DNA of 11,098 bases from a virus: the UHGV virus genome UHGV-0320970; one strand, given 5' to 3'. The notes under the pieces were generated by a model that had not been told where the DNA came from, searched no databases, and was given only the letters and a program-made list of their open reading frames with translations. A program made the position numbers and the translations under genes. How positions within the stretch are numbered: position 1 is the first letter of the stretch; each line of letters starts with the position of its first letter. Of the stretch, positions 55-11,098 are shown piece by piece.

Positions 55-362
55 TTAGATTGAGTACGTGAGGAGCCCCTTCCGAAATGCACTTTCCTCA
101 GTAGCGGTTATATTTTCACGTTCATTTTTTGCGTATGCATATACGAAAAAGGCCCTTGTGCCGACGCGATAGAAAATGATTGTGCGATAACCGCCAGATT
201 TGCCGCCACCGACTCGTGGCAGACGTTGCTTGATAACGCCGTTACCCAGGTTTGCTGAGATAAGCCCGTTATCAGCCTGTTTAACAATTTCGCGCAGTGA
301 TTGGTCGGATATTTTGTTTTGCGTGCAAGTCGCTCAAACCAGGCGTTTTTAAAAATGCGCAT
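55..362 (-). pseudogene. RelE/ParE-superfamily (HigB-like) type II toxin, disrupted by a single-nucleotide frameshift in an A-run
   Basis: Minus-strand ATG at 360-362 gives MRIFKNAWFERLARK; after the A-run (plus coords ~312-320) the reading continues in another frame as ISDQSLREIVKQADNGLISANLGNGVIKQRLPRVGGGKSGGYRTIIFYRVGTRAFFVYAYAKNERENI... to TAA (55-57). The GKSGGYR ... FFxYAxAKNE pattern is typical of this toxin family. No single frame spans the gene; the track ORF 108..425 is the wrong-frame continuation. Confidence 0.5.
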
Positions 363-384
363 TTTTTGTTCCGTTATTAATGTA

Positions 385-399
385 TAACACATAGTGTTA
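385..399. promoter_or_regulatory. Perfect 6-3-6 inverted repeat TAACAC-ATA-GTGTTA just upstream of the toxin start; candidate operator
   Basis: Palindrome read directly from the sequence, 23 bp upstream of the minus-strand toxin ATG. TA operons are commonly autoregulated at such palindromes. Confidence 0.3.
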
Positions 400-428
400 C
401 ATTGCGTAGGGATCTGCAATGCCATCAG

Positions 429-459
429 TTTGACAACGTCGCGTGTTCGGGGCTATATT
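429..459 (+). promoter_or_regulatory. Candidate sigma70 promoter (TTGACA, ~19 bp spacer, TATATT) facing the nin-type operon
   Basis: Consensus -35 hexamer at 429-434 and -10-like hexamer at 454-459; the spacer is longer than optimal. Motif match only. Confidence 0.2.
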
Positions 460-704
460 CCTCACGCGCCAGCAAAACCTGGCGTCGGGATTAGCACCCC
501 GGATATCGAAACGGTGCATAACCGCGCTGGCGGTTTTTTTATGCGCTAAGCACAGTCACATTCGCGATTTATGGCGGGCTGTGTGGGGGAGCCGAAAGGC
601 TCGCCGGATGTTTCGACCGGTAGTGCTAACCCCGCACAGTTCGCCACCACGATGATTAGCACCTGACGGTGGCGAGGTAAAAATTATCGAAACGCGAGGT
701 CATT

Positions 705-1370
705 ATGGCTGTTCAAATTTCTGTCGAAAACCTTTCCCCTGTTACCTATAACCAGATCCCCGTAATTACTACTGAACTGTTGGCTCACCTTTACGGAACA
801 AAAATCAAAAACATTTCTGATAACTTTCTGAACAACACGACGCGATTCATGCCCGGAAAGCATTACTTTAAAATTGAAAAAAACGAATTACGCGAGTTTA
901 AGAACAGACCCGAAACAATCGGGTTAGTTGGTAAAAATGCCCGCTCCCTCATCCTCTGGACAGAACGCGGCGCAGCCCGTCACGCAAAAATGCTCGAAAC
1001 CGATCGGGCGTGGGAGGTATTCGAAAAACTGGAAGACTGCTATTTCAGCCAGGGAAAAACAGCACCAACCGAACAGCAGCCGCAGATTCAGCCACAATTC
1101 ACAGCCGAAGAAATCATCCTCCTTTGCTACATGCAGCTCTGGATGGAAAAAGCCCAGGACCTCAGCAAACACCTGTATCCCATTATGAAAGAGCTGAACT
1201 CCTCATACACGAACAAGCTGTATGACATTGCGTTTGAGACCATCTACATGGTGACGAAGAACAGAGACGCGCTACTAAGGGAGGTAACACGTCTCGACAT
1301 GTCAAGTTCCGTTATCCAGCGGGCCATGCCAATGCTGAAAAGCCTGCGGGCAAGACAATTTGAATTCTGA
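705..1370 (+). CDS. Phage antirepressor/regulatory-like protein (ORF6N / KilA-N / Roi-like N-terminal DNA-binding domain), 221 aa
   Basis: Long ORF with SD GAGGT 5 nt upstream of the ATG. The N-terminal ~110 aa (VITTELLAHLYGTKIKNISDNFLNN...KNELREF) resembles the N-domain of phage antirepressor-type proteins. It sits immediately upstream of ninB, as in lambdoid nin regions. Family assignment is from recall. Confidence 0.75.
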   Translation: MAVQISVENLSPVTYNQIPVITTELLAHLYGTKIKNISDNFLNNTTRFMPGKHYFKIEKNELREFKNRPETIGLVGKNARSLILWTERGAARHAKMLETDRAWEVFEKLEDCYFSQGKTAPTEQQPQIQPQFTAEEIILLCYMQLWMEKAQDLSKHLYPIMKELNSSYTNKLYDIAFETIYMVTKNRDALLREVTRLDMSSSVIQRAMPMLKSLRARQFEF

Positions 1371-1375
1371 AACTA

Positions 1376-1397
1376 AAGGAGCTTCGGCTCCTTTTTT
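1376..1397 (+). terminator. Intrinsic terminator (AAGGAGC-TTCG-GCTCCTT followed by a T-run), tR2-like position upstream of ninB
   Basis: 7-bp GC-containing stem, 4-nt loop and T6 tail, starting 6 nt after the stop codon of the preceding gene. Confidence 0.6.
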
Positions 1398-1424
1398 GTT
1401 GGGAAAATCCAGTGAGAGGGAATA

Positions 1425-1835
1425 ATGAACCAGACTATCTTCCTCCGAAGTAAACAGCAGCAACAATTCGCCATTAACGCCATCCTTGCAACAACTCTCG
1501 ATAAAGACAAACCCGTTACGATCCGCATCACCGATTACAAGCGGAATCTCGATCAAAATGCCAAATTTCACGCGATGGTCGCTGATATCTCCCGACAGGT
1601 TCAGTGGTGCGGCAGATGGCTAAAACCAGAACAGTGGAAAGTTTTGTTAATCAGCGGTCATGCCGTGGCTACAAAACAGGAAGCTGATGTTTTGCCAGGT
1701 CTTGAAGGTGAATACGTCAATATCCGCGAAAGCAGTGCGCAGATGAGCGTGAAGCGTATGGCAAGCCTGATTGAGTACACAACTTCCTGGGCTGTGGAGC
1801 AGGGTGTCAGATTTACCGACAGGAGGTATGAATGA
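1425..1835 (+). CDS. ninB: NinB-like recombination protein (136 aa)
   Basis: Translation ...[38 protein letters not shown]... aligns by eye with lambda NinB (...RNRSLDQNRKLWACLGDVSRQVEWHGRWL...). SD GAGGG upstream; the stop overlaps the next start. Confidence 0.9.
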
Positions 1836-2023
1836 GACGACAGCGACGAAGCATTACCGATATAGTCTGTGAAAACTGCAATTACCTTCCAACGAAACGC
1901 TCCCGAAATAAACCCAGGCCAATCCCCAACGAATCTGATGTAAAAACCTTCAATTATACGTCTCACCTGTGGGATGTCCGGTGGCTCAGACGTCGTGCAA
2001 GATTTAATAGTCACTCCGGATAG
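1832..2023 (+). CDS. ninE: NinE-like protein (63 aa)
   Basis: [56 protein letters not shown] matches the lambdoid NinE family. The start overlaps the ninB stop (ATGA), the canonical gene order. Confidence 0.85.
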
Positions 2024-2043
2024 TTCAATGTACGAGGAATAAG

Positions 2044-2337
2044 ATGATGGCAAACCTACGCAAAGAAGCGCGTGGCAGAGAATGTCAGGTACGGATTTAC
2101 GGCGTATGCAATGGCAATCCTGAAACTACAGTTTTGGCGCATTACCGAATAGCTGGAATTTGCGGAACGGGAATGAAGCCAGATGACCTGTTGGCTGCAT
2201 GGGCCTGTAGTGACTGCCATAATGAAATCGATCGCCGTACTCGCATTCTCGACAACAACGACGCCAGACTTTACCACCTGGAAGGCGTGATCAGGACGCA
2301 GGCGATATTGCTGAAGGAGGGGAAGATTAAGTCATGA
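2044..2337 (+). CDS. ybcO: YbcO-like DUF1364 protein (Cys/His-rich putative nuclease), 97 aa
   Basis: ARGRECQVRIYGVCNGNPETTVLAH...CSDCHNEIDRR pattern matches the DLP12 YbcO family. Tandem ATGs at 2044 and 2047; the stop overlaps the rusA start. Confidence 0.8.
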   Translation: MMANLRKEARGRECQVRIYGVCNGNPETTVLAHYRIAGICGTGMKPDDLLAAWACSDCHNEIDRRTRILDNNDARLYHLEGVIRTQAILLKEGKIKS

Positions 2338-2696
2338 ATGAATATGAGTTTGTGCTTCCCTGGCCGCCGACGGTGAATACCTACTGGCGAAGACGGGGAA
2401 GCCAGTACTACATCAGCGATAAAGTCCAGAAATACCGAAAAGACGTACAGCAAATCATCCGGCAACTCAGATTAGACATTTTCACTAAATCACGACTTCG
2501 CATCACAATTATTGCTGAACCACCAGACTCCCGCCGTCGCGACCTCGATAACATCCTGAAAGGTTTACTCGACTCTCTTATCCACGCCGGATTTGCGGAA
2601 GACGACGAGCAATTCGATGACATTCGCGTAATTCGCGGCGTGAAAGTGCCTGGCGGTAGAGTGGGGATAAAAATCACCGAACTGGAGAACATTTGA
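2334..2696 (+). CDS. rusA: RusA Holliday-junction resolvase (120 aa)
   Basis: MNEYEFVLPWPPTVNTYW...RRRDLDNILKGLLDSL...DDEQFDDIRV closely parallels E. coli RusA, including the acidic catalytic region. Start overlaps the ybcO stop (ATGA). Confidence 0.92.
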   Translation: MNEYEFVLPWPPTVNTYWRRRGSQYYISDKVQKYRKDVQQIIRQLRLDIFTKSRLRITIIAEPPDSRRRDLDNILKGLLDSLIHAGFAEDDEQFDDIRVIRGVKVPGGRVGIKITELENI

Positions 2697-2890
2697 TGAA
2701 TGCTAAAATTCAAACGATACCTGAATTACTGATCTGCACCAGGGGAAATCAGACAGAAGTCGCCAGAATACTGAACTGCAATCGTGCTACAGTCAGAAAA
2801 TACATTGATGATAAAGATGCGAAAAAGCACGCCGTCGTCAATGGCGTCCTTATGGTTCATCGCGGATGGGGTAAAGATACTGATGCGTGA
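2696..2890 (+). CDS. ninH: NinH-like protein (64 aa)
   Basis: ...[52 protein letters not shown] resembles lambda NinH (HTH-like). The ATG at 2696 overlaps the rusA stop; the track start at 2693 is a TTG three nt upstream. Confidence 0.85.
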
Positions 2891-3263
2891 TATCCGGCAG
2901 GTTCTTGAGCGCTGGGGGGCATGGGCGGTAAATAACTATGAGGATGTTACATGGTCGCCCATTGCTGCCGGATTTAAGGGACTGATCCCCGAAAAAGTAA
3001 AATCACGTCCACAGTGCTGTGACGATGATGCGATGGTGATATGCGGGTGCATAGCCCGCCTTTACCGGAACAATCGCGATCTGCATGACTTGCTGGTTGA
3101 TTACTACGTGTTGGGGGAGACGTTCATGGCGCTGGCACGTAAGCATGGATGCTCTGATGGAACTATCGGTAAAAAATTACAGAAAGCGGAGGGCGTGGTT
3201 GAAGGGATGTTAATGTTACTTGGTGTCAGACTGGAAATGGACCGATATGCGCAACGCCTCTGA
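2883..3263 (+). CDS. Q: Late-gene antiterminator Q, short phage-82 / QuuD-like type (126 aa)
   Basis: The track ORF starts at 2784, but that portion overlaps ninH out of frame. The ATG at 2883 overlaps the ninH stop (ATGCGTGA) and gives [24 protein letters not shown]...[12 protein letters not shown]...[10 protein letters not shown], which matches short Q antiterminators. Last gene of the nin operon, as expected. Confidence 0.85.
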
Positions 3264-3302
3264 CAGGAGGCGTTTGCCGTTCACTATGTGAAGTGTGTCA
3301 AT

Positions 3303-3332
3303 TTGTGAGCGTTATGCTGTTTACTTTATAGT
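3303..3332 (+). promoter_or_regulatory. Candidate late promoter pR' / qut region (TTGTGA, 18 bp, TATAGT)
   Basis: Sits in the 131-bp gap directly downstream of Q, where lambdoid phages carry pR' and the Q-utilisation site. Hexamer match only; the exact promoter is not certain. Confidence 0.3.
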
Positions 3333-3394
3333 ACAGGGACGTAAGAGTTATCTACCTGTTAATAACATATATACAACAATGAACAGGGGGCAAA

Positions 3395-3988
3395 ATGGAC
3401 ATTGAAGATTTTCTGGAGGCGGAAGACAATGATCTGTCTCTGTGGAATGATGATATTTTAAGCATTGACTGGTTCGTTATCCTCAAAGAGCTTTTGAAAT
3501 ACCAGAACAGGTTAAAGTTAAACTATTCAGAATTACTTCTGCTGGCTAATTTTGTTTCATTTCACCAGGACGTAGATTCGCAAACATTACCATCAATATC
3601 TCTTTTTGCCACCAGAATGCGTGCATCTCGTGCCATTATAGAAGAAGGCTTTCAACGCCTGGAGGAGAAAGGGATGTTGCAGAAGATAAGTTATGCTCAA
3701 ATCGGTCATGATTATGATTTGCGGAACGTTTATGACATCAAGCCATTAATTCGTAAGTTAATTGAGGTGCTGAAAACCGAGTATGATAAAAAGCACACTT
3801 GCCCCCTCTGCGGCAAAATAGCTGTCTCTGATGAGGAAATTGAGAAAAAATTCGGATTCAGAATTTGCGGGAATAAGAAAAGGCCGCAAAGCTGGTGCCG
3901 TTCATGCAGAAGCACGAAACAACGCAGACTGAATTCATCGCTAATTGGCAAAAAAAAGCCCCGAAAATCTCCGCCCGAGGTGGTGTGA
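3395..3988 (+). CDS. Moron-like hypothetical protein, 197 aa: acidic N-terminus, winged-helix-like core, C-terminal zinc-ribbon-like motif and basic tail
   Basis: Strong SD AGGGGG 6 nt before the ATG. Visibly more AT-rich than the nin genes. Core ...RASRAIIEEGFQRLEEKGMLQKI... resembles a winged-helix recognition region. C-terminus has CPLCG ... CRSCR and a Lys/Arg-rich tail. I recognise no family. Confidence 0.7.
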   Translation: MDIEDFLEAEDNDLSLWNDDILSIDWFVILKELLKYQNRLKLNYSELLLLANFVSFHQDVDSQTLPSISLFATRMRASRAIIEEGFQRLEEKGMLQKISYAQIGHDYDLRNVYDIKPLIRKLIEVLKTEYDKKHTCPLCGKIAVSDEEIEKKFGFRICGNKKRPQSWCRSCRSTKQRRLNSSLIGKKKPRKSPPEVV

Positions 3989-4101
3989 AGCGTCGCGGAA
4001 CCCCGGATTCCACTCACGATTGAACGAGGTGCTAAAAAGTATTTTACGTACGTAAAAATCTGCATATCATGATAAGAGTGGTTACATTGCCACGCTGCTT
4101 A

Positions 4102-4126
4102 ACCCGCCGATGCGCGGGTTTTTTTG
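4102..4126 (+). terminator. Intrinsic terminator (ACCCGC-CGATGC-GCGGGT followed by a T-run)
   Basis: GC-rich 6-bp stem followed by T7, about 110 nt downstream of the moron gene stop. Candidate tR'-equivalent or moron terminator. Confidence 0.6.
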
Positions 4127-4305
4127 TACCCAGAATCCTGTGAGCTATACGGAAAGTACACAGAAAGGAAGGTACGACCGCAATTAATAACAAAATCTTA
4201 AAAATCTCATATGGCACTATTAGTTTTCTAAATATTGTATATTTTAAGTATTGCAGGATAACCCTGTAACGAAGTTTGCGTAACAGCATTTTGCTCTACG
4301 AGTTT

Positions 4306-4336
4306 GCCAGCCTCCCCTGGTGGCTGGCTTTTTTTG
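4306..4336 (+). terminator. Intrinsic terminator (GCCAGCC-TCCCCTGGT-GGCTGGC followed by a T-run)
   Basis: Perfect 7-bp GC-rich stem, 9-nt loop and T7 tail. Confidence 0.65.
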
Positions 4337-4421
4337 TATCCGTTCAACGGGAATGTTACATACCTCACAATTAAGTCAGTTGAATGTTGTCTGCCCGGAT
4401 GAGAATTTGTTAGAAAAAACT

Positions 4422-4450
4422 GCATGGTGAATCCCCCTGAGCGGAGGGGC
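4422..4450. repeat. Outer inverted repeat P1 (29 bp), left copy
   Basis: GCATGGTGAATCCCCCTGAGCGGAGGGGC; its reverse complement recurs at 4817-4845 with one mismatch. Confidence 0.85.
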
Positions 4451-4520
4451 GACTGGTGACGGTATAATCTCTGATTATCAAAACGAGAATGACGCGGGTT
4501 TAGTGGCACCGGGCTGAACT

Positions 4521-4575
4521 CACCGGGAGGCACCCGGCACCATGCAATGGCACATAGCGCCACTCTCCAGCCCCT
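4521..4575. repeat. Repeat unit 'a' (55 bp), left arm of a perfect inverted repeat
   Basis: CACCGGGAGGCACCCGGCACCATGCAATGGCACATAGCGCCACTCTCCAGCCCCT; exact reverse complement at 4708-4762 (55/55). Confidence 0.95.
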
Positions 4576-4707
4576 CTCCGGAGGGGCTTTCTTATGGACA
4601 AAAAAGCCCGCGCTGGGAGACGCGGGCGGCAAGGAATAAACAATAAAACGTGAAGTAATATTTCAGCTGGCGAATAATACCCCATAGTAATCACTCTGCG
4701 CAACTGC
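4576..4707. repeat. Spacer S (132 bp) enclosed by the 'a' inverted repeat; contains convergent terminator-like hairpins
   Basis: Plus-strand hairpin GCCCCTC-TCCG-GAGGGGC followed by TTTCTT at the a/S boundary. Minus-strand hairpin GCCCGCG...CGCGGGC followed by a T-run (plus coords ~4600-4627). A near-identical copy of S lies at 10917-11049. Confidence 0.85.
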
Positions 4708-4762
4708 AGGGGCTGGAGAGTGGCGCTATGTGCCATTGCATGGTGCCGGGTGCCTCCCGGTG
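4708..4762. repeat. Repeat unit a' (inverted copy of 'a')
   Basis: Exact reverse complement of 4521-4575. Confidence 0.95.
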
Positions 4763-4816
4763 AATTCAGTACCAGCACCTGAATCCGCGATTATCCCATA
4801 TACCTACTCGCTGATT

Positions 4817-4845
4817 GCCCCTCCGCACAGGGGGATTCACCATGC
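4817..4845. repeat. Outer inverted repeat P1', right copy
   Basis: Reverse complement of 4422-4450 with a single mismatch. Confidence 0.85.
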
Positions 4846-4891
4846 CAGTTTCTTTTAACAAACTCCCCGCAAACCAGACAACAGTCAACCG

Positions 4892-4946
4892 CCGGCACCA
4901 TGCAATGGCACATAGCGCCACTCTCCAGCCCCTCTCCGGAGGGGCT
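4892..4946. repeat. Third copy of the 'a' unit, direct orientation
   Basis: 55/55 identical to 4534-4588 (CCGGCACCATGCAATGGCACATAGCGCCACTCTCCAGCCCCTCTCCGGAGGGGCT); flanks differ. Confidence 0.9.
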
Positions 4947-4981
4947 GTTTATATTGATTTTGTCAGATGTGAGTAAACTCC

Positions 4982-5317
4982 TTATGGACTTTGTTGTTTT
5001 AGCCCATAAGGACATATTTGCAGAGTGCAACGGTTATTAAAGCATTCATTCAATACGTTATCTGTATTTGTAGGGCATTCCTGGCTGTTTTTGATTAAAT
5101 TCCAGAATGTTTTATTGAATGGTACTACGTTGTAAATGGTTACAGGTAGCACTTTGTTATTGAGCATGATGCCTGTGTGAGTCAGTGTAAATATACTTTC
5201 AGGAGGTAAGAAAGCATCCGATTGATACCAGATTATTAATTTTATTTTACTCCATATGACTGAAAAAGATATTCCGCATGATGGCTGGATAACTGTATCA
5301 ATCACAATCCACTTCAT
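4982..5317 (-). CDS. Hypothetical protein (111 aa) in an AT-rich island, orientation opposite to neighbours
   Basis: ORF with plausible SD AAGGAA 6 nt upstream of the ATG on the minus strand. Very AT-rich and similar to nothing I recognise; could be a spurious ORF. Confidence 0.3.
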
Positions 5318-5577
5318 TTAGTTTCCTTGTTTATGCCTTGCTGGTGATGTTCTGAAAAGTATAAATGATATTTTTGATTGTAAACCATAGAGCAGAATTA
5401 TTTTTCTGATGTTGTTTATTGTTTATTTAAATGCAGGGTGGTTTATATCTCGTCTTGTAGTTTATCCATGCATATCTGCTTGATGATGAGGTTTTTATTT
5501 AAGGTATGGTTTTGTGTTTTTTCTGTATTACATGTCAGGTATTTTAAAGAATCATTTTTCAGATGGTGGAAAGAACC

Positions 5578-7521
5578 ATGGCATTTAAACACTATGATGT
5601 TGTCAGGGCGGCGTCGCCGTCAGATCTTGCGGAAAAGCTGACACATAAACTGAAAGAGGGCTGGCAGCCGTTTGGCAGTCCTGTGGCTATCACGCCTTAT
5701 ACACTGATGCAGGCCATTGCCGCAGAGGGTGATGTGACCACGCCTGTGGTTGTGCCCGACACAGGGGCTGGTGGCTCTCCGGGAGTGGCTACCACTGAAC
5801 CGGAGTATTACTACGTTATTCCCCTGGCCGGGCAGTCGAACGGTATGGCCTATGGTGAGGGGCTTCCTCTGCCGGAGACCTATGATCGCCCTGACTCCCG
5901 TATTAAGCAGCTGGCCCGTCGCAGCACTGTGACGCCGGGTGGTGATACCTGTGCATACAATGACGTTATTCCGGCAGACCACTGTCTGCATGATGTTCAG
6001 GACATGAGCGCACTTAACCATCCTCATGCAGACCTGAGTAAGGGCCAGTACGGGACTGTCGGTCAGGGGCTGCATATTGCCAAAAAACTGCTGCCTTATA
6101 TCCCGCAGAATGCCGGGATTCTTCTGGTGCCCTGTTGCCGTGGCGGGTCTGGTTTAACCGTGGGTAATGACGGCACGTTCAGCGAAACGTCTGGTGCATC
6201 GGCAAATTCAGCCCGCTGGGGAGTGGGTAAACCGCTGTATCAGGATTTTCTCTTCCGTACAAAAGCGGCGCTGTCGAAGAACCCGAAAAACAGGCTTCTG
6301 GCCGTGGTATGGATGCAGGGGGAAAATGATCTTGCGGACGGCAGTCAGCAGCACAGCGGCCTGTTTACCACTATGGTGCAGCAGTTCAGGGCTGATATGG
6401 CTGCATATTCTGCACAGTGTGTTGGCGGAAGTGCTGGCTCGGTGCCGTGGATTTGTGGTGACACCACGTATTACTGGAAGAATCTTAACGCCGATAAATA
6501 TGAGGCGGTATATGGCGGTTACAAGGGCAGGGAAGCACAGAATATTTTCTTTGTACCGTTCCTGACGGATGAGAATGGACAGAGCACGCCAACGAATGCT
6601 CCGGCGGAAGACCCGGATATTGTGGCTGTCGGGTATTACGGTGCAGCATCCCGAACCCAGGGCAGTTTTGTTTCGACACAGCGTGACAGCCATTTCAGCT
6701 CATGGGCACGCAGGGGCGTCATTTCAGACCGTCTGGCCTCAGCTATTATGCTCCATGCAGGGCGCACGGCTGAATTGATGCGCGGGCAGACCGTGACACC
6801 ACCGGATGAGAAGCCGTCACCTGATACACCATCAAAACCGTCCACGCCACCCGCAGACACCACGACGATGAGTACGCTATTTGCTTACCGGGCATCTGAG
6901 TCTGAAGGACGGTTGACACCACAGGGTTGGGCTGCTGGAGGTGGCAAGGCTCAAATCGTGGATGATGCCGGAGCCAGCGGGGGTAAGGCAATGAAACTGA
7001 CCAAGGAAACAGGAAGAGCCCCCTGGTACCTTGAGCATGATGCTGGTAATGGTGCGGACCTGCTGGGTAAAGGTGGTCTTGTCAGTTGTCGTTTTAAACT
7101 CGATGGCGCGCTTACGGCTAATCAGTACGCACTGGCGCTGTACTGGCCGGTTTCTTCATTGCCTCAGGGTGTCACACTGGAAGGTAATGCCGGTAACAAT
7201 CTGCTGGCGTCGTTTTACGTACAGAGCGATGCCACAGACCTCAACGTGATGTACCACAAGGGTAACGCTGACCAGAACACGAAGCTGGGGTCATTCGGCG
7301 CATTTGACAACGAATGGCATACGCTGGGTTTCCGTTTTGCCGGTAATAACAGCATTCAGGTGACGCCGGTGATTGATGGTCAGGATGGTGCACCGTTCAT
7401 GCTGTCGCAGTCTCCGGTAGGTTCTTTTGCGGCAGACAAATTACGTGTAACGGATATCACAAAAGCGGCGACGTATACGGTGCTGATTGAAAGTATAACA
7501 GTGGAAGTGAATAACCCGTAA
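5578..7521 (+). CDS. nanS-p: Prophage NanS-p-type sialate O-acetylesterase (N-terminal DUF1737-like domain, SGNH/SASA esterase core, C-terminal putative carbohydrate-binding domain), 647 aa
   Basis: The paralogue starts MAFKHYDVV, so the ATG at 5578 is preferred over the track start at 5563. Core contains YYYVIPLAGQSNGMAYGEG (GQSN nucleophile motif) and CGDTTYYW. Located in the post-Q slot where lambdoid and Stx prophages carry nanS-p. Confidence 0.88.
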   Translation: MAFKHYDVVRAASPSDLAEKLTHKLKEGWQPFGSPVAITPYTLMQAIAAEGDVTTPVVVPDTGAGGSPGVATTEPEYYYVIPLAGQSNGMAYGEGLPLPETYDRPDSRIKQLARRSTVTPGGDTCAYNDVIPADHCLHDVQDMSALNHPHADLSKGQYGTVGQGLHIAKKLLPYIPQNAGILLVPCCRGGSGLTVGNDGTFSETSGASANSARWGVGKPLYQDFLFRTKAALSKNPKNRLLAVVWMQGENDLADGSQQHSGLFTTMVQQFRADMAAYSAQCVGGSAGSVPWICGDTTYYWKNLNADKYEAVYGGYKGREAQNIFFVPFLTDENGQSTPTNAPAEDPDIVAVGYYGAASRTQGSFVSTQRDSHFSSWARRGVISDRLASAIMLHAGRTAELMRGQTVTPPDEKPSPDTPSKPSTPPADTTTMSTLFAYRASESEGRLTPQGWAAGGGKAQIVDDAGASGGKAMKLTKETGRAPWYLEHDAGNGADLLGKGGLVSCRFKLDGALTANQYALALYWPVSSLPQGVTLEGNAGNNLLASFYVQSDATDLNVMYHKGNADQNTKLGSFGAFDNEWHTLGFRFAGNNSIQVTPVIDGQDGAPFMLSQSPVGSFAADKLRVTDITKAATYTVLIESITVEVNNP

Positions 7522-7669
7522 GCAGGAAAAAAAGACCGCCGTGGCAGGGAAAACAAGGAGCCAGAACCGGCGGCAGAAGTCGCTACATCCTTAGCAAAAA
7601 TATGCTGAGCAAAAAATGCAGGAGTTTTTTACTGGCAGGCATTGACCATGTCAATAATGGAGATGAATA

Positions 7670-7852
7670 ATGACATTTTTACAGCTGATTATGTTGTATT
7701 TCTGTACAGCAGTTTGTGTGCTGTATCTTCTTTCTGGTGGGTACAGAGTCGTGAGAGATTTCTGGCGCAGACAGATTGACAAAAGGGCCGCTGAGAAAAT
7801 CAGTGCCAGTCAGTCAGCCGGAACAAAACCCGAAGAGCCTCTCATTCCGTAG
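7670..7852 (+). CDS. Small single-pass membrane protein (60 aa), paralogue of 8424..8606
   Basis: MTFLQLIMLYFCTAVCVLYLLSGGY is a hydrophobic helix, followed by a charged tail. SD GGAG upstream. A diverged copy is conserved on the opposite arm. Confidence 0.6.
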   Translation: MTFLQLIMLYFCTAVCVLYLLSGGYRVVRDFWRRQIDKRAAEKISASQSAGTKPEEPLIP

Positions 7853-7889
7853 CAACTTTCTTAACAACACCTTTCAACGAGAAAATACC

Positions 7890-8414
7890 ATGTCAGAAAT
7901 AAAATCGCTGGTCACTGCTGAAGCAGTGAAGGAAGTCCTGCGCTCTGAAGAAGTCAGAAGCGCACTGAAACAGCAACTTCGGCAGAACCTTGAGGCGCGT
8001 CTTGATGCAGAAGTGGATGCCATTCTGGATGAACTGCTGGGCGCACCGACTGTTCCGGAGCCGGAAGGCATTGCGTACCCCGTCTCCCGCAATCCGGAAG
8101 CTCACAACAATATAAAGACCACCGGCACACACCGATGGTCCCTTGCGCATGCTTACATCATCATGTCGCTGTCAGGTGTAGGTTCACCGCCATCTGAAGC
8201 ACTCCCGTCACCCGCGATACCTTCCGGCTCAGGAACCGCTGCTACGCCCAGCAGCTCATCCAGAATGGCATCCACTTCTGCATCAAGACGCGACTCAAGA
8301 TTCTGGCGAAGTTTCTGTTTCAGTGCGCTCCGGACCTCTTCAGAGCGCAGGACTTCCTTCACTGCCTCTGCAGTGACCAGGGATGTGATTTCTGACATGG
8401 GATTTTCTCGCTGA
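7890..8414 (+). CDS. 81-aa-family acidic helical protein, plus-arm copy; homology ends near 8078 and the ORF then reads through the palindrome centre antisense to the other copy (possibly truncated or fused)
   Basis: MSEIKSLVTAEAVKEVLRSEEVRSALKQQLRQNLEARLDAEVDAILDELLG...PEPEGIA matches the minus-arm copy for 63 aa, then diverges with no nearby stop. Confidence 0.45.
   Translation: MSEIKSLVTAEAVKEVLRSEEVRSALKQQLRQNLEARLDAEVDAILDELLGAPTVPEPEGIAYPVSRNPEAHNNIKTTGTHRWSLAHAYIIMSLSGVGSPPSEALPSPAIPSGSGTAATPSSSSRMASTSASRRDSRFWRSFCFSALRTSSERRTSFTASAVTRDVISDMGFSR
8153..8398 (-). CDS. 81-aa acidic helical protein, minus-arm copy (apparently intact)
   Basis: MSEITSLVTAEAVKEVLRSEEVRSALKQKLRQNLESRLDAEVDAILDELLG...PEPEGIAGDGSASDGGEPTPDSDMMM with its own stop at 8153-8155. 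Confidence 0.6.
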   Translation of the reverse strand: MSEITSLVTAEAVKEVLRSEEVRSALKQKLRQNLESRLDAEVDAILDELLGVAAVPEPEGIAGDGSASDGGEPTPDSDMMM

Positions 8415-8423
8415 AAGGGGTTG

Positions 8424-8606
8424 TTAAGGAGTAACGGGTTCTTCGGGTTTGCTTCCGGCTGACTGACTGGCGCTGATTTTCTCAGCGGCCCTTTTATCAA
8501 TCTGCCTGCACCAGAAATCGCGCACAGCCCTGTACCCACCCGAAAGAAGATACAGCACACAGACCGCCGTACAGAAGTACAGCATCACCTGATGAATAAA
8601 TGTCAT
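8424..8606 (-). CDS. Small single-pass membrane protein (60 aa), paralogue of 7670..7852
   Basis: MTFIHQVMLYFCTAVCVLYLLSGGYRAVRDFWCRQIDKRAAEKISASQSAGSKPEEPVTP; diverged from the plus-arm copy at several positions, so not a recent exact duplicate. Confidence 0.6.
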   Translation of the reverse strand: MTFIHQVMLYFCTAVCVLYLLSGGYRAVRDFWCRQIDKRAAEKISASQSAGSKPEEPVTP

Positions 8607-8745
8607 AATTTCTTACCGTTATGGTTGACAATGAGAATTGTTTTCATTTAAAAAACCAATGTACGAAAGCATCTTTTCTTTACATTCTCCATTGGGATTA
8701 CCTCCGCCAGCTTCCATTCCTGCCGCTGGCGGCTTTTTTTAGCAA

Positions 8746-10656
8746 TTATGCGGCTGCTCCAGCTTTGTTTGCTTTAACTTCCACCGTATCAATAAGTACA
8801 GGGTAGGTTTCTGCACTACCTGTAATATCCGTAATGACAAACCTGTTGAGTCCATTAGCAGTATTGGCCCATTTCACCAGGTCAAACGCCTGTCCATCCA
8901 CACCATCGAGCACCGGAGTAACATTAATGCTGTTACTGCCCTTAAATTTAAATGCAAGCGTATGCCAGTCATGGTCGAATGCGCCAAACGTGCCAAGTTC
9001 TTTTTGTTGATTAACTGTATGATGGTATGCAACATTAATACTGGCTTTATCTGTCTGGACAAAGAAAGAACTCAGATGGCCTTCACCACCCTCACCCGGC
9101 CATTCCGCTATTCGCCAGTACAAACCAAAGGCATACTTGTTTCTGGTTGTCTCAAGATTGACGTTTTCGGGGATTTTAAACCGGACAGCAATTTCCCCGC
9201 CTTTTTCCAGTAAAAGTTTTGCCTTGTCTGCAGCAATATCACAGTACATTGACCAGGATTTCGCGCTGTTATTTTTCTCAATTCGCAGAGCTTTATTGCC
9301 GCTGTCATCAACCAGTGTGCGTCTGCCATACATACCGTCCCAGCCATAAGGTTTCAGCTGATTGTCTGTAGCTTTTTTGGCATCGTAAAAAATTACAGAC
9401 TCTGAGGTGGTAACCGGCCTGTCTGGAACAACCACCCCGGCAGTACCATTAACAAACGCAGAAGACTTACCCGCGCAGCTCAGAATCGCCGTTGCCAGAC
9501 GGTCGGAAATAATCCCACGGCGAGCCCATGAACTGAAATGGCTCGCCCTGTCCTGTGACGTCCAGGTGGCTGAGCTGTCACGCCATTTCGAACCGTAATA
9601 ACCGATACCCGGAATGTCCGGGTCTTCTTCCGGTTTGTTCGTCGGCACATTCACCCCGTTCTCATCGGTCATGAACGGTACGAAATGGATATTCTTTTCC
9701 GTTTTATTTTTATAGCTGCCGTACACCGTCTGGTACGTGGATTCGTTCTTCTGCTTCCAGAAATACGTCGTGTCCCCGCATATCCAGGGAACACCGCCAG
9801 CAGAGCCACCGACGCACTGGCCTGCCATATCCGCCAGGTCTGCACGGAATTTATCAACCAGCGCACCAAACTGTGCGGCATGATTTGCCGGCGTACCGCC
9901 AAAATCAAATTCCCCCTGCATCCACACCACGGCAAACAGCACATTTTTCGGGTTCTTCTCCAGTGCCGCTTTTGTTCGACCGATAAGGTCCTTATACAGC
10001 GGCTTGTCCACACCCCAGCGGGTTGAATTCTCCGAGGCACCACTCGCGTCACTGTATGTGCCATCAGCTCCGGTGGTGAACGCTGAACCACCACGACAGC
10101 ACGGAACCAGCAGAATGCCCGCATTCGCCGGTATAAACGGCAGCAGTTTTTTGGCGATATGCAGCCCCTGCCCCACGGTTCCGTACTGCCCCTTTGACAG
10201 GTCCGCTTTCGGATGGTTAAGACGGCTCATGTCCTGCACATCATGCAGACAATGGTCCGCCGGAATGATGTCGTTATATTTGCATGCTGCACCGCCCGGT
10301 GTCACCGTACTGCGACGCGCTAACTGTTTAATACGTGGATCAGGGCTGTCGAATGTATCCGGTAATGGCAGTCCCTCACCGTATGACATACCATTGGACT
10401 GACCAGCAAGCGCGATCACATAGTAATATTCTGGCGCAACAGAAGGCGCTGAGGTCGTCGGACGGTTGCCTGGCTCCTCTGGTGATGAGATGCTCCCCTC
10501 ACTCACAACTGGCTGGATGAACTCCGCACCATAACCAGCTGTCGAAATCAGCGCACTACCATAAGGCTGCCACCCTTCCTTCAGTTTTTGAGTTATTCGT
10601 TTCGCAAGGTCTGACGGCGACGCCGCCCTGACAACATCATAGTGTTTAAATGCCAT
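8746..10656 (-). CDS. nanS-p: Second, diverged NanS-p-type sialate O-acetylesterase (636 aa)
   Basis: MAFKHYDVVRAASPSDLA..., YYYVIALAGQSNGMSYGEG, CGDTTYFW. Strong SD GGGAGG 5 nt upstream on the minus strand. Same three-domain layout as 5578..7521 but with many substitutions, especially in the linker and C-terminal domain. Confidence 0.9.
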   Translation of the reverse strand: MAFKHYDVVRAASPSDLAKRITQKLKEGWQPYGSALISTAGYGAEFIQPVVSEGSISSPEEPGNRPTTSAPSVAPEYYYVIALAGQSNGMSYGEGLPLPDTFDSPDPRIKQLARRSTVTPGGAACKYNDIIPADHCLHDVQDMSRLNHPKADLSKGQYGTVGQGLHIAKKLLPFIPANAGILLVPCCRGGSAFTTGADGTYSDASGASENSTRWGVDKPLYKDLIGRTKAALEKNPKNVLFAVVWMQGEFDFGGTPANHAAQFGALVDKFRADLADMAGQCVGGSAGGVPWICGDTTYFWKQKNESTYQTVYGSYKNKTEKNIHFVPFMTDENGVNVPTNKPEEDPDIPGIGYYGSKWRDSSATWTSQDRASHFSSWARRGIISDRLATAILSCAGKSSAFVNGTAGVVVPDRPVTTSESVIFYDAKKATDNQLKPYGWDGMYGRRTLVDDSGNKALRIEKNNSAKSWSMYCDIAADKAKLLLEKGGEIAVRFKIPENVNLETTRNKYAFGLYWRIAEWPGEGGEGHLSSFFVQTDKASINVAYHHTVNQQKELGTFGAFDHDWHTLAFKFKGSNSINVTPVLDGVDGQAFDLVKWANTANGLNRFVITDITGSAETYPVLIDTVEVKANKAGAAA

Positions 10657-10720
10657 GAATCCTCCCGGCCGGGATAATATTGTGAGTAAAATAAGGAGCG
10701 GGCTGAAGTCCGGAAGTTAC

Positions 10721-10838
10721 AGGACAATGGCAGAAGGGAGACTACAGCCCGCAATTCGAAAAAGGTCGCGCAGTTGCGCAGAGTGATTACTATGGGGTAT
10801 TATTCGCCAGCTGAAATATTACTTCACGTTTTATTGTT
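10721..10838. repeat. Left arm of the terminal palindrome (118 bp)
   Basis: Reverse complement of 10981-11098, checked by eye over both ends. Its inner ~70 bp is the reverse complement of the right part of spacer S. Confidence 0.85.
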
Positions 10839-10916
10839 GATTCAGGTGCTGGTACTGAATTCACCGGGAGGCACCCGGCACCATGCAATGGCACATAGCG
10901 CCACTCTCCAGCCCCT
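10839..10916. repeat. 78-bp block identical to the reverse complement of 4708-4785 (flank R0 plus unit 'a')
   Basis: GATTCAGGTGCTGGTACTGAATT followed by the 55-bp 'a' unit; exact match to the reverse complement of the locus-1 a'+flank. Confidence 0.9.
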
Positions 10917-11049
10917 CTCCGGAGGGGCTTTCTTGTGGGCAAAAAAAGCCCGCGCTGGGAGACGCGGGCGGCAAGGAATAAACAATAAAACGTGAAGTAA
11001 TATTTCAGCTGGCGAATAATACCCCATAGTAATCACTCTGCGCAACTGC
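10917..11049. repeat. Second copy of spacer S, same plus-strand orientation as 4576-4707
   Basis: Near-identical to 4576-4707 apart from an extra A in the A-run and two substitutions (CTTATGGACA vs CTTGTGGGCA). Confidence 0.9.
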
Positions 11050-11098
11050 GCGACCTTTTTCGAATTGCGGGCTGTAGTCTCCCTTCTGCCATTGTCCT
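10981..11098. repeat. Right arm of the terminal palindrome, running to the window edge
   Basis: Reverse complement of 10721-10838; the palindrome may continue beyond the window. Confidence 0.85.

Follow-up and report, generated by a model that had tools for sequence, protein, structure and literature searches.

Tree et al. (2014; PMC4104026) reported that eight prophages of the Sakai strain carry convergent pairs of Hfq-bound sRNAs in the moron slot, 3' of PR', and a later review (PMC7873438) called such pairs dyads of unknown purpose. According to Tree et al., EcOnc05 on the plus strand of the prophage Sp4 is followed on the minus strand by EcOnc08 and EcOnc21 (about 271 nt on northern blots). 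The plus-strand members are known under several names of the STnc100 family, such as EcOnc27 or sRNA103 (Stx2 phage Sp5 / 933W) and EcOnc05 and EcOnc06 (Sakai Sp4 and Sp17). RNA-seq of EDL933 showed 11 expressed STnc100 copies, one of which was confirmed by northern blot, and the expression and Hfq association of the Sakai homologues were shown by Hfq-CRAC and northern blots. These close homologues are expressed, Hfq-bound and Hfq-stabilised, act in trans by base pairing and have many mRNA interactions; the proposed STnc100 targets fimZ, espA and stxB are indirect or in silico. The AsxR/AgvB family consists of anti-sRNAs of 51-60 nt with a conserved 3' segment of about 42 nt. PasD1 and PasD2 of EPEC E2348/69 are Hfq-dependent and multicopy via repeated prophage acquisition (Pearl Mizrahi 2021; Zhu, Shabalina and Storz 2026 preprint). 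Zhu et al. described PasD as structurally homologous to STnc100, with a shared Q and esterase neighbourhood, and stated that the two are not linked by BLAST and have different seeds.

The window, which is the whole stretch of 11,098 nt of the viral genome UHGV-0320970 analysed in this study, contains a nested set of inverted and direct repeats, and we consider it very probable that this feature is a cluster of sRNA genes in the moron slot of a lambdoid prophage and not one unit. The first-pass annotation, made from the letters alone, had recognised no named repeat family in it and had proposed folding and a covariance-model search. When the window was scanned against Rfam, the unit was found to belong to RF02076 (STnc100), with scores of 165.1, 105.7 and 60.7 bits against a curated gathering score of 47 bits (Table 1; the limits of these matches are the Rfam model boundaries). 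The best of them covers what reads as an intact STnc100-family sRNA gene, here called the A-type copy, which is 99.9% identical to the single-copy locus in the public prophage locus L001. The Q-to-nanS position given in the earlier annotation was borne out by Pfam, since Q (PF06530) and a nanS-like esterase flank the region. The cluster lies 3' of Q and of a moron coding sequence and upstream of the nanS-like ORF, and this layout agrees with those of L001, 933W and Sakai Sp4. ARAGORN found no tRNA or tmRNA in the window, and a tRNA or tmRNA origin of the units was dropped.

Table 1. Features of the window and the segments of which it is composed; RNA genes and RNA parts are predictions.
Feature	Position	Strand	Basis
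Antiterminator Q, left slot landmark	2784-3263	+	PF06530, E 2e-50
DnaD_N-like ORF	3395-3988		Pfam
Predicted STnc100 gene, A-type, intact	4394-4599	+	RF02076 165.1 bits, E 5e-38, full model 1-206
Outer repeat, STnc100 5' conserved block	4422-4450	+	Upper-case consensus in Rfam alignment
Unit 'a', STnc100 conserved 3' half	4521-4575	+	Exact 55-mer across loci; fold
A-copy intrinsic terminator	4569-4597	+	Stem 4569-4588, U-rich tail; matches Rfam terminal hairpin
Most of spacer S, putative 3' part of convergent RNA, EcOnc08/21/42 type	4598-4707	-	Terminator scan, Sp4 identity, probe
STnc100 inverted copy, Rfam match	4874-4698	-	RF02076 105.7 bits, terminal hairpin replaced by unrelated sequence
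Inverted B-type (EcOnc05-type) STnc100 body, 5' part and 42-nt core	4708-4893	-	Rfam 105.7 bits
STnc100 weak match	4782-4958	+	RF02076 20.7 bits, below gathering score
B-type 3' fragment, direct, 42-nt core and terminator 4926-4947	4892-4958	+	100% to L014, terminator scan, Rfam 20.7 bits
iraM / PmrD-like, 111 aa	4982-5317	-	RefSeq 'anti-adapter protein IraM'; PF11183 PmrD
nanS-like esterase, B-type, right slot landmark	5563-7521	+	DUF1737 + SASA + DUF6645
STnc100 half-copy, Rfam match	10751-10940	+	RF02076 60.7 bits
STnc100 3' half-copy (B-type 3' part, core, terminator)	10839-10940	+	Self-comparison; L014 7279-7369 at 100%; Rfam 60.7 bits over 10751-10940
Segment of L001 850-5328, lineage A	229-4707	+	99.93%
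Segment of L014 7171-7356, lineage B	4708-4893	Reverse complement	100%
Segment of L014 7315-10498, lineage B	4892-8075	+	100%
Segment of L001 5255-8022, lineage A	8076-10843	Reverse complement	99.86%
Sp4-like segment: B-type 3' part, core, terminator, S, nanS leader	10839-11098	+	Separate identities, see text

The A copy folds with a minimum free energy of -77.7 kcal/mol (z -2.9) and has a closing helix, internal hairpins and, at its end, an intrinsic terminator, whose plus-strand stem carries a TTCTTATGG tail in the terminator scan; the inverted copy has no terminator hairpin. In the long-range closing helix, the 5' strand is GCAUGGUG (4422-4429), the 8 nt with which the outer repeat begins, and the 3' strand is CACCAUGC (4537-4544), a part of unit 'a'. 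The remainder of the outer repeat is a CCCCC...GGGGG hairpin, and 'a' also contains a CCGGG-AGGCA-CCCGG hairpin, a linker and the beginning of the terminator stem. In a consensus fold of seven STnc100 variants from unrelated loci, the closing helix (columns 31-38 with 150-157) was kept in 7/7 variants and the hairpin at columns 43-47 / 54-58 was conserved, while compensatory changes on both sides were seen in 6 of 38 pairs, the variable-centre helix among them. In this model both repeat tiers are thus predicted to be the two conserved blocks of STnc100, base-paired with each other around a variable centre, and the tiers match while the stretch between them differs because that stretch is the STnc100 variable region. 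The region 4394-4599 would give a structured RNA of about 200-250 nt ending at its own intrinsic terminator. Its true 5' end is probably some 20-40 nt upstream of 4394, because the EcOnc27 and EcOnc05 analogues are about 222-247 nt long; the sigma-70 promoter scan upstream of 4394 gave nothing convincing, only a conserved TTGAC(A/T) motif without a good -10 partner. By analogy with these homologues we infer the transcription, 5' ends and Hfq binding of the A copy, whose RNA would be an Hfq-bound, trans-acting base-pairing sRNA.

The repeat geometry described before was recovered in most respects. The outer inverted repeat (4422-4450 / 4817-4845) is 29 nt long with one mismatch, at the same coordinates and with the same mismatch count, and the inner one (4521-4575 / 4708-4762) is perfect over 55 nt, extendable to 62 nt with one mismatch (4514-4575 / 4708-4769), and encloses the 132-nt spacer S (4576-4707). 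The reported divergence of the stretches between the two tiers was also supported (alignment A1). On the other hand, the unit at 4892-4946, taken for a third direct copy of 'a' with 55/55 identity, is register-shifted: it equals 4534-4588, with the final 42 nt of 'a' followed by 13 nt of the terminator, and only the 42-nt core is shared. This core occurs in every copy, at 4534-4575, in reverse complement at 4708-4749 and at 4892-4933, and a fourth time at 10875-10916, beyond the range of the earlier note. Self-comparison of the window found S-right again, inverted at 10770-10843 and direct at 10976-11049, so the half-copy at 10839-10940 is preceded by an inverted S-right (minus strand) and followed by a full direct S (10930-11049). 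The repeats are far above chance expectation, because they are copies of a gene.

The perfect conservation of 'a' had been attributed to constraint on a recombination site, a protein-binding site or a structured RNA, or else to ongoing gene conversion. The structured RNA held, as 'a' is the conserved 3' half of STnc100; recombination site and gene conversion did not. The exact 55-mer was found as a single copy per locus in 30 of the 34 public loci fetched, always on the strand of Q and nanS. These loci (L001, L002 and L004-L022 among them) include both parental lineages of the window and an Stx2a phage. The core copies at 4708-4749 and 4892-4933 derive from one parental gene. The identity of 'a' everywhere in the window follows from these two facts, the near invariance of the 55-mer across the family and the common parent of two of the copies. 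Since 'a' is nearly invariant across unrelated prophage loci, local gene conversion is unnecessary, and a recombination-site function is not needed to explain the identity either.

The hairpins in spacer S were rightly described as convergent terminators, with the plus-strand stem at 4569-4588 and, 18 nt away, a minus-strand intrinsic terminator with its stem at 4627-4606, a T-run to about 4598 and a TTTTTTGT tail. An RNA gene on the opposite strand, whose terminator adjoins that of STnc100, is thus found here as in other convergent pairs, and the convergent hairpins just end two convergent sRNA genes. Window 4514-4703 is 96% identical to Sakai Sp4 1179850-1180040, the published EcOnc08/21/42 northern probe maps to the S-right equivalent, and the EcOnc05 probe (AATCCGCGATTATCCCATATACCTACTCGCTGATT) matches window 4782-4816 exactly. 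On account of this identity and these probe matches, S would consist of the STnc100 terminator and the 3' part and terminator of an EcOnc08/21-type convergent RNA, an assignment made from the Sp4 identity and the probe sequence and not from a curated family. This minus-strand RNA is interrupted at 4707 by junction J1. In 933W, STnc100 (1778-1983, 207.7 bits) directly abuts the convergent AsxR (2037-1985, 88.1 bits) with the same flank into nanS, and S occupies the same slot as AsxR there. An identity of S with AsxR or AgvB was rejected, because no covariance-model match to RF02703 or RF02702 was found in 4540-4760 at E <= 10, despite clear scores of 88.1 and 40.9 bits in the 933W positive control. 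OmrA/B was rejected as well for the minus strand of S, because its scores of 21.8 and 25.2 bits lie below the gathering score of 40, and we take it as a terminator-driven chance match.

The first-pass annotation had compared the layout to a MITE or an invertible switch, in which 'a' would be the recombination site and S or the inter-repeat segment would flip to control expression. Inverted repeats of 55-62 nt, perfect over 55 nt, do flank S, and perfect 42-nt repeats flank 4750-4891, whose flipping would on paper restore an intact plus-strand B-type gene; repeats of 42-62 nt are long enough for RecA-dependent inversion. But 'a' is part of a transcribed RNA gene family, and the survey of S orientation that had been suggested gave a single answer. 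Of 5,426 complete E. coli genomes, 1,066 carried the native a-S junction (scored at at least 80% coverage) and none the flipped junction, a synthetic query, and the order STnc100, S terminator, S-right and nanS start was identical, with fixed orientation, in 14/14 fetched S-bearing loci. The search with the complete a-S-a' unit, likewise suggested, found no place covering at least 80% of 4380-4960 or 4640-4960 in the E. coli genomes or phages, which argues against a multicopy mobile element. Pfam identified only antirepressor, NinB, YbcO, RusA, Q, DnaD_N, esterases and DUF826 in the 10 main ORFs of the window, with no site-specific recombinase among them, and no invertase, integrase or other site-specific recombinase was found within 8 kb of the parental-type loci. 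The inverted arm, moreover, is accounted for by a private rearrangement. A known family and a single fixed orientation had been named beforehand as the observations that would speak against the proposal, and both were found. The switch reading is already refuted at population level, and an invertible switch or MITE at this locus is hardly credible.

The sequence comparisons trace the inverted copy to a private, five-segment and alternately oriented mosaic of two prophage lineages (Table 1). Lineage A has the gene order Q, DnaD_N-like ORF, STnc100-A, S and nanS, and lineage B has tRNAs, STnc100-B, iraM on the minus strand, nanS, DUF1378 and DUF826. For the last segment, window 10839-10929 is 100% identical to L014 and window 10855-11098 is 97.95% identical to L001. 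The inverted body at 4708-4893 is also the reverse complement of Sakai Sp4 1179726-1179911 at 100%; it has neither its own terminator nor any DNA upstream of the parental L014 position 7171. The 3' fragment at 4892-4958 is contiguous with the B-type iraM-nanS region, and iraM is the usual convergent neighbour of B-type STnc100 (STnc100-B, iraM on the minus strand and nanS in 10/10 places shown). Judged from these matches, 4708-4893 and 4892-4946 would be the body and the 3' end of one lineage-B STnc100 gene. Look-ups of the iraM-like protein, nanS-1 and a 197-aa protein returned collinear parental prophages only, and the 647-aa nanS-like product of 5563-7521 was found in collinear B-type prophages. 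Two diverged nanS paralogues lie tail to tail in the region.

The four junctions (4707/4708, about 4892, 8075/8076 and about 10840) have overlaps of 0, 2, 0 and 4-5 nt, and J3 truncates a DUF826 gene. Six of the eight breakpoint ends fall within the hairpin-rich STnc100/S module of about 340 bp, and by our reading five of the eight, among them ends in the STnc100 terminator and in two internal hairpins, fall in hairpin or quasi-palindromic sequence. Non-homologous joins would have produced the inverted copy, and the positions of the breakpoints would fit hairpin-provoked breakage or template switching, whether in the cell or in vitro. A single homologous inversion between two prophages was rejected, because the junctions are without homology and the cores are truncated or duplicated, while such an inversion predicts collinear chimeric genes. 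The presence of four illegitimate junctions within 6.4 kb, between parental segments of near-100% identity, is unusual for a natural genome, and therefore raises the possibility of an artefact.

If the joins arose during library preparation, amplification or assembly, for example as chimeric molecules by polymerase template switching at hairpins, the inverted copy and the nested repeat would not be present in the source genome. The overlaps of only 0-5 nt, the breakpoint ends in hairpins and the segments 99.9-100% identical to intact collinear parents are all consistent with this. Exact scans showed that the J1 and J2 sequences are absent from the genome, metagenome and viral contig collections, no place spanning any junction was found among 50,697 phage records and 5,426 E. 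coli genomes, DUF826 is cut at J3, and the junction-spanning ORFs (7890-8414, 7776-8414 and 4500-4778) gave no record on look-up. However, De Bruijn-graph misjoins require shared k-mers, which are absent at the junctions, so misassembly of this kind was rejected, and the joined segments come from two prophage lineages, which simple local snap-back does not explain. We give an artefact somewhat less than an even chance; even if true, it would alter only the origin of the inverted copy and not the identity of the units. It is also conceivable, but distinctly unlikely, that the STnc100/S module is a preferred breakpoint for fold-back or inversion between co-resident lambdoid prophages, and that the resulting inverted repeats of 42-62 nt could support RecA-dependent flipping, which would toggle the strand with an intact EcOnc05-type gene or make an antisense sponge against the A copy.

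A functional antisense RNA from the mosaic has also been considered. The inverted B copy could be transcribed, for instance by read-through from iraM, through S to the minus-strand terminator, and the chimeric RNA could titrate or destroy the A-copy sRNA. On the minus strand from 5317 to 4598, the first strong terminator is the one at 4627-4606, the B terminator read in reverse complement has no U-tail, the complementarity to the A copy extends over 62 nt (one mismatch in the 62-nt repeat, 55 nt perfect), and AsxR and AgvB are known precedents in this slot for a sponge or anti-sRNA logic. Yet the arrangement is unique to the window sequence and so has no evolutionary support, the predicted fold of the chimeric minus-strand RNA of the inverted copy and S is no better than that of shuffled sequence (z = -0.36), the B copy has lost its native upstream DNA and the adjacent junctions are clearly destructive. 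An antisense function is, in our view, very unlikely. With neither a terminator of its own nor its native upstream sequence, the inverted B copy is most likely a by-product of the rearrangement that has no function.

The units and the convergent layout of the sRNA gene cluster are already known, and only the added inverted fragment, private to the window sequence, is new. Descriptions of the STnc100 family, of its structure and multicopy occurrence in prophages and of its convergent pairing with a second sRNA date from 2008 to 2026, and the discovery value of the locus is small. It does illustrate that sRNA genes carried in several copies by prophages, when they lie in opposite orientation, can mimic MITEs or invertible switches. 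In RefSeq such loci are unannotated or lie under spurious 'hypothetical protein' ORFs, and a half-gene fragment such as the match at 10751-10940 passes the Rfam gathering score. If the mosaic is real, it would be a minor case of illegitimate rearrangement between prophages, with a structured-RNA module at its centre.

As compared to the known systems, the locus resembles the fimS and hin/gin/cin/pin switches and MITEs in the inverted repeats that bracket a short segment, but here no recombinase was found, the population has a single orientation and there is no target-site duplication; unlike MITEs, there is no multicopy complete element, and the 'repeat' is the body of an RNA gene. The likeness of PasD1 and PasD2 to STnc100 is taken from the descriptions of their authors. 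The minus-strand RNA of S is a positional analogue of the anti-sRNAs AsxR and AgvB. The moron-slot dyads (EcOnc27/AsxR and EcOnc05/EcOnc08-21) are alike in the abutting terminators of a plus-strand STnc100 and a minus-strand RNA, and share the slot and the flanks (the nanS leader and the sequence ...CTGCGCAACTGCGCG...). A difference from the EcOnc27/AsxR dyad is the minus-strand partner, here of the EcOnc08/21 type and without a match to RF02702 or RF02703, and in the first S copy the upstream part of this partner is replaced by the inverted STnc100 body. The closest relatives are STnc100, EcOnc27 and EcOnc05 themselves, with which the locus agrees in sequence, structure (165 and 106 bits), slot, multicopy prophage distribution and U-tailed intrinsic terminator. 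The inverted copy and the 55-nt third copy are fragments of such genes and not genes, and the A copy shows no difference from STnc100.

The stretch at 10751-10940 of the window clears the Rfam gathering score of the sRNA STnc100 (60.7 bits vs 47), and only 10839-10940 is derived from STnc100. The leading 88 nt are an inverted nanS leader together with S-right, the nanS-side portion of the spacer S, and annotation pipelines would over-call the whole as an STnc100 gene. In RefSeq/PGAP, STnc100 copies are covered by 'hypothetical protein' ORFs or by nothing, with no ncRNA feature (public locus L002, 4058-4183; database matches H56-H70), so the family is invisible in standard annotation. In some E. 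coli genomes a single locus contains a pair of STnc100 copies arranged in tandem on the same strand, as in L006, and in matches H106-H110 paired copies of the 55-nt unit 'a', the conserved 3' half of STnc100, lie on one strand about 445 nt apart. The gene is therefore multiplied locally in nature, though in direct orientation.

The minus strand of S gave two weak OmrA-B-like matches, scoring 21.8 and 25.2 bits where the gathering score is 40; the terminator, along with a short similarity on the 5' side, probably accounts for them. On our reading of the sequences, a -35-like hexamer, TTGCGC, is common to this strand (4698-4703, -) and to AsxR of phage 933W (L023, ~2040-2075, -), followed at a distance of 18 nt by a -10-like hexamer, TATTAT in the window and TAAAAT in 933W. 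The northern size of EcOnc08/21 in Sakai, ~271 nt (PMC4104026), implies a start farther upstream than these candidate hexamers.

The DnaD N-terminal-like ORF occupies the moron position immediately 3' of Q in lineage A, and in Stx1a phages stx1AB is situated between the region of this ORF and the STnc100 copy (matches H32-H34). The 111-aa iraM/PmrD-like cargo gene (4982-5317, -) is extremely widespread, its exact protein occurring in 34,862 blocks of the searched collection, and in every context shown (10/10) the gene is flanked by B-type STnc100 and nanS and runs on the opposite strand to them; in lineage B, STnc100 thus converges on a protein gene, not an sRNA. The nanS-1 (5563-7521, +) and nanS-2 genes are paralogues with 76-86% identity. 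At 7666-8610, two late-region arms are joined tail to tail at the junction 8075|8076, with DUF1378 and DUF826 (+) opposed to DUF826 and DUF1378 (-) at 85% identity between arms; the plus-strand DUF826 is broken off after ...PEPEGIA and continues into the reverse complement of holin-upstream DNA.

Features located in the window and in locus L006
Feature	Location	Strand	Score or domain
isrK	within window 453-651		74.3 bits
C4 antisense RNA	within window 453-651		75.1 bits
c4 a1/b1 target	within window 453-651		47.4 bits
Antirepressor gene	window 705-1370		ORF6N/P22_AR_C domains
197-aa ORF	window 3395-3988		DnaD N-terminal-like domain (PF21984, E 2e-08)
OmrA-B-like weak matches	window 4599-4687 and 10941-11029	-
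nanS-2 (nanS-1 paralogue)	window 8746-10656	-
Tandem STnc100 copies	L006 6362-6550 and 6826-7019	same strand

At the left end, the ORF6N/P22_AR_C antirepressor gene lies directly downstream of the isrK/C4/c4-target cluster, and the module was also found in L001, the parental-type locus of lineage A. Together these elements are an antirepressor control module of the P1-c4 / Gifsy-1 IsrK type.
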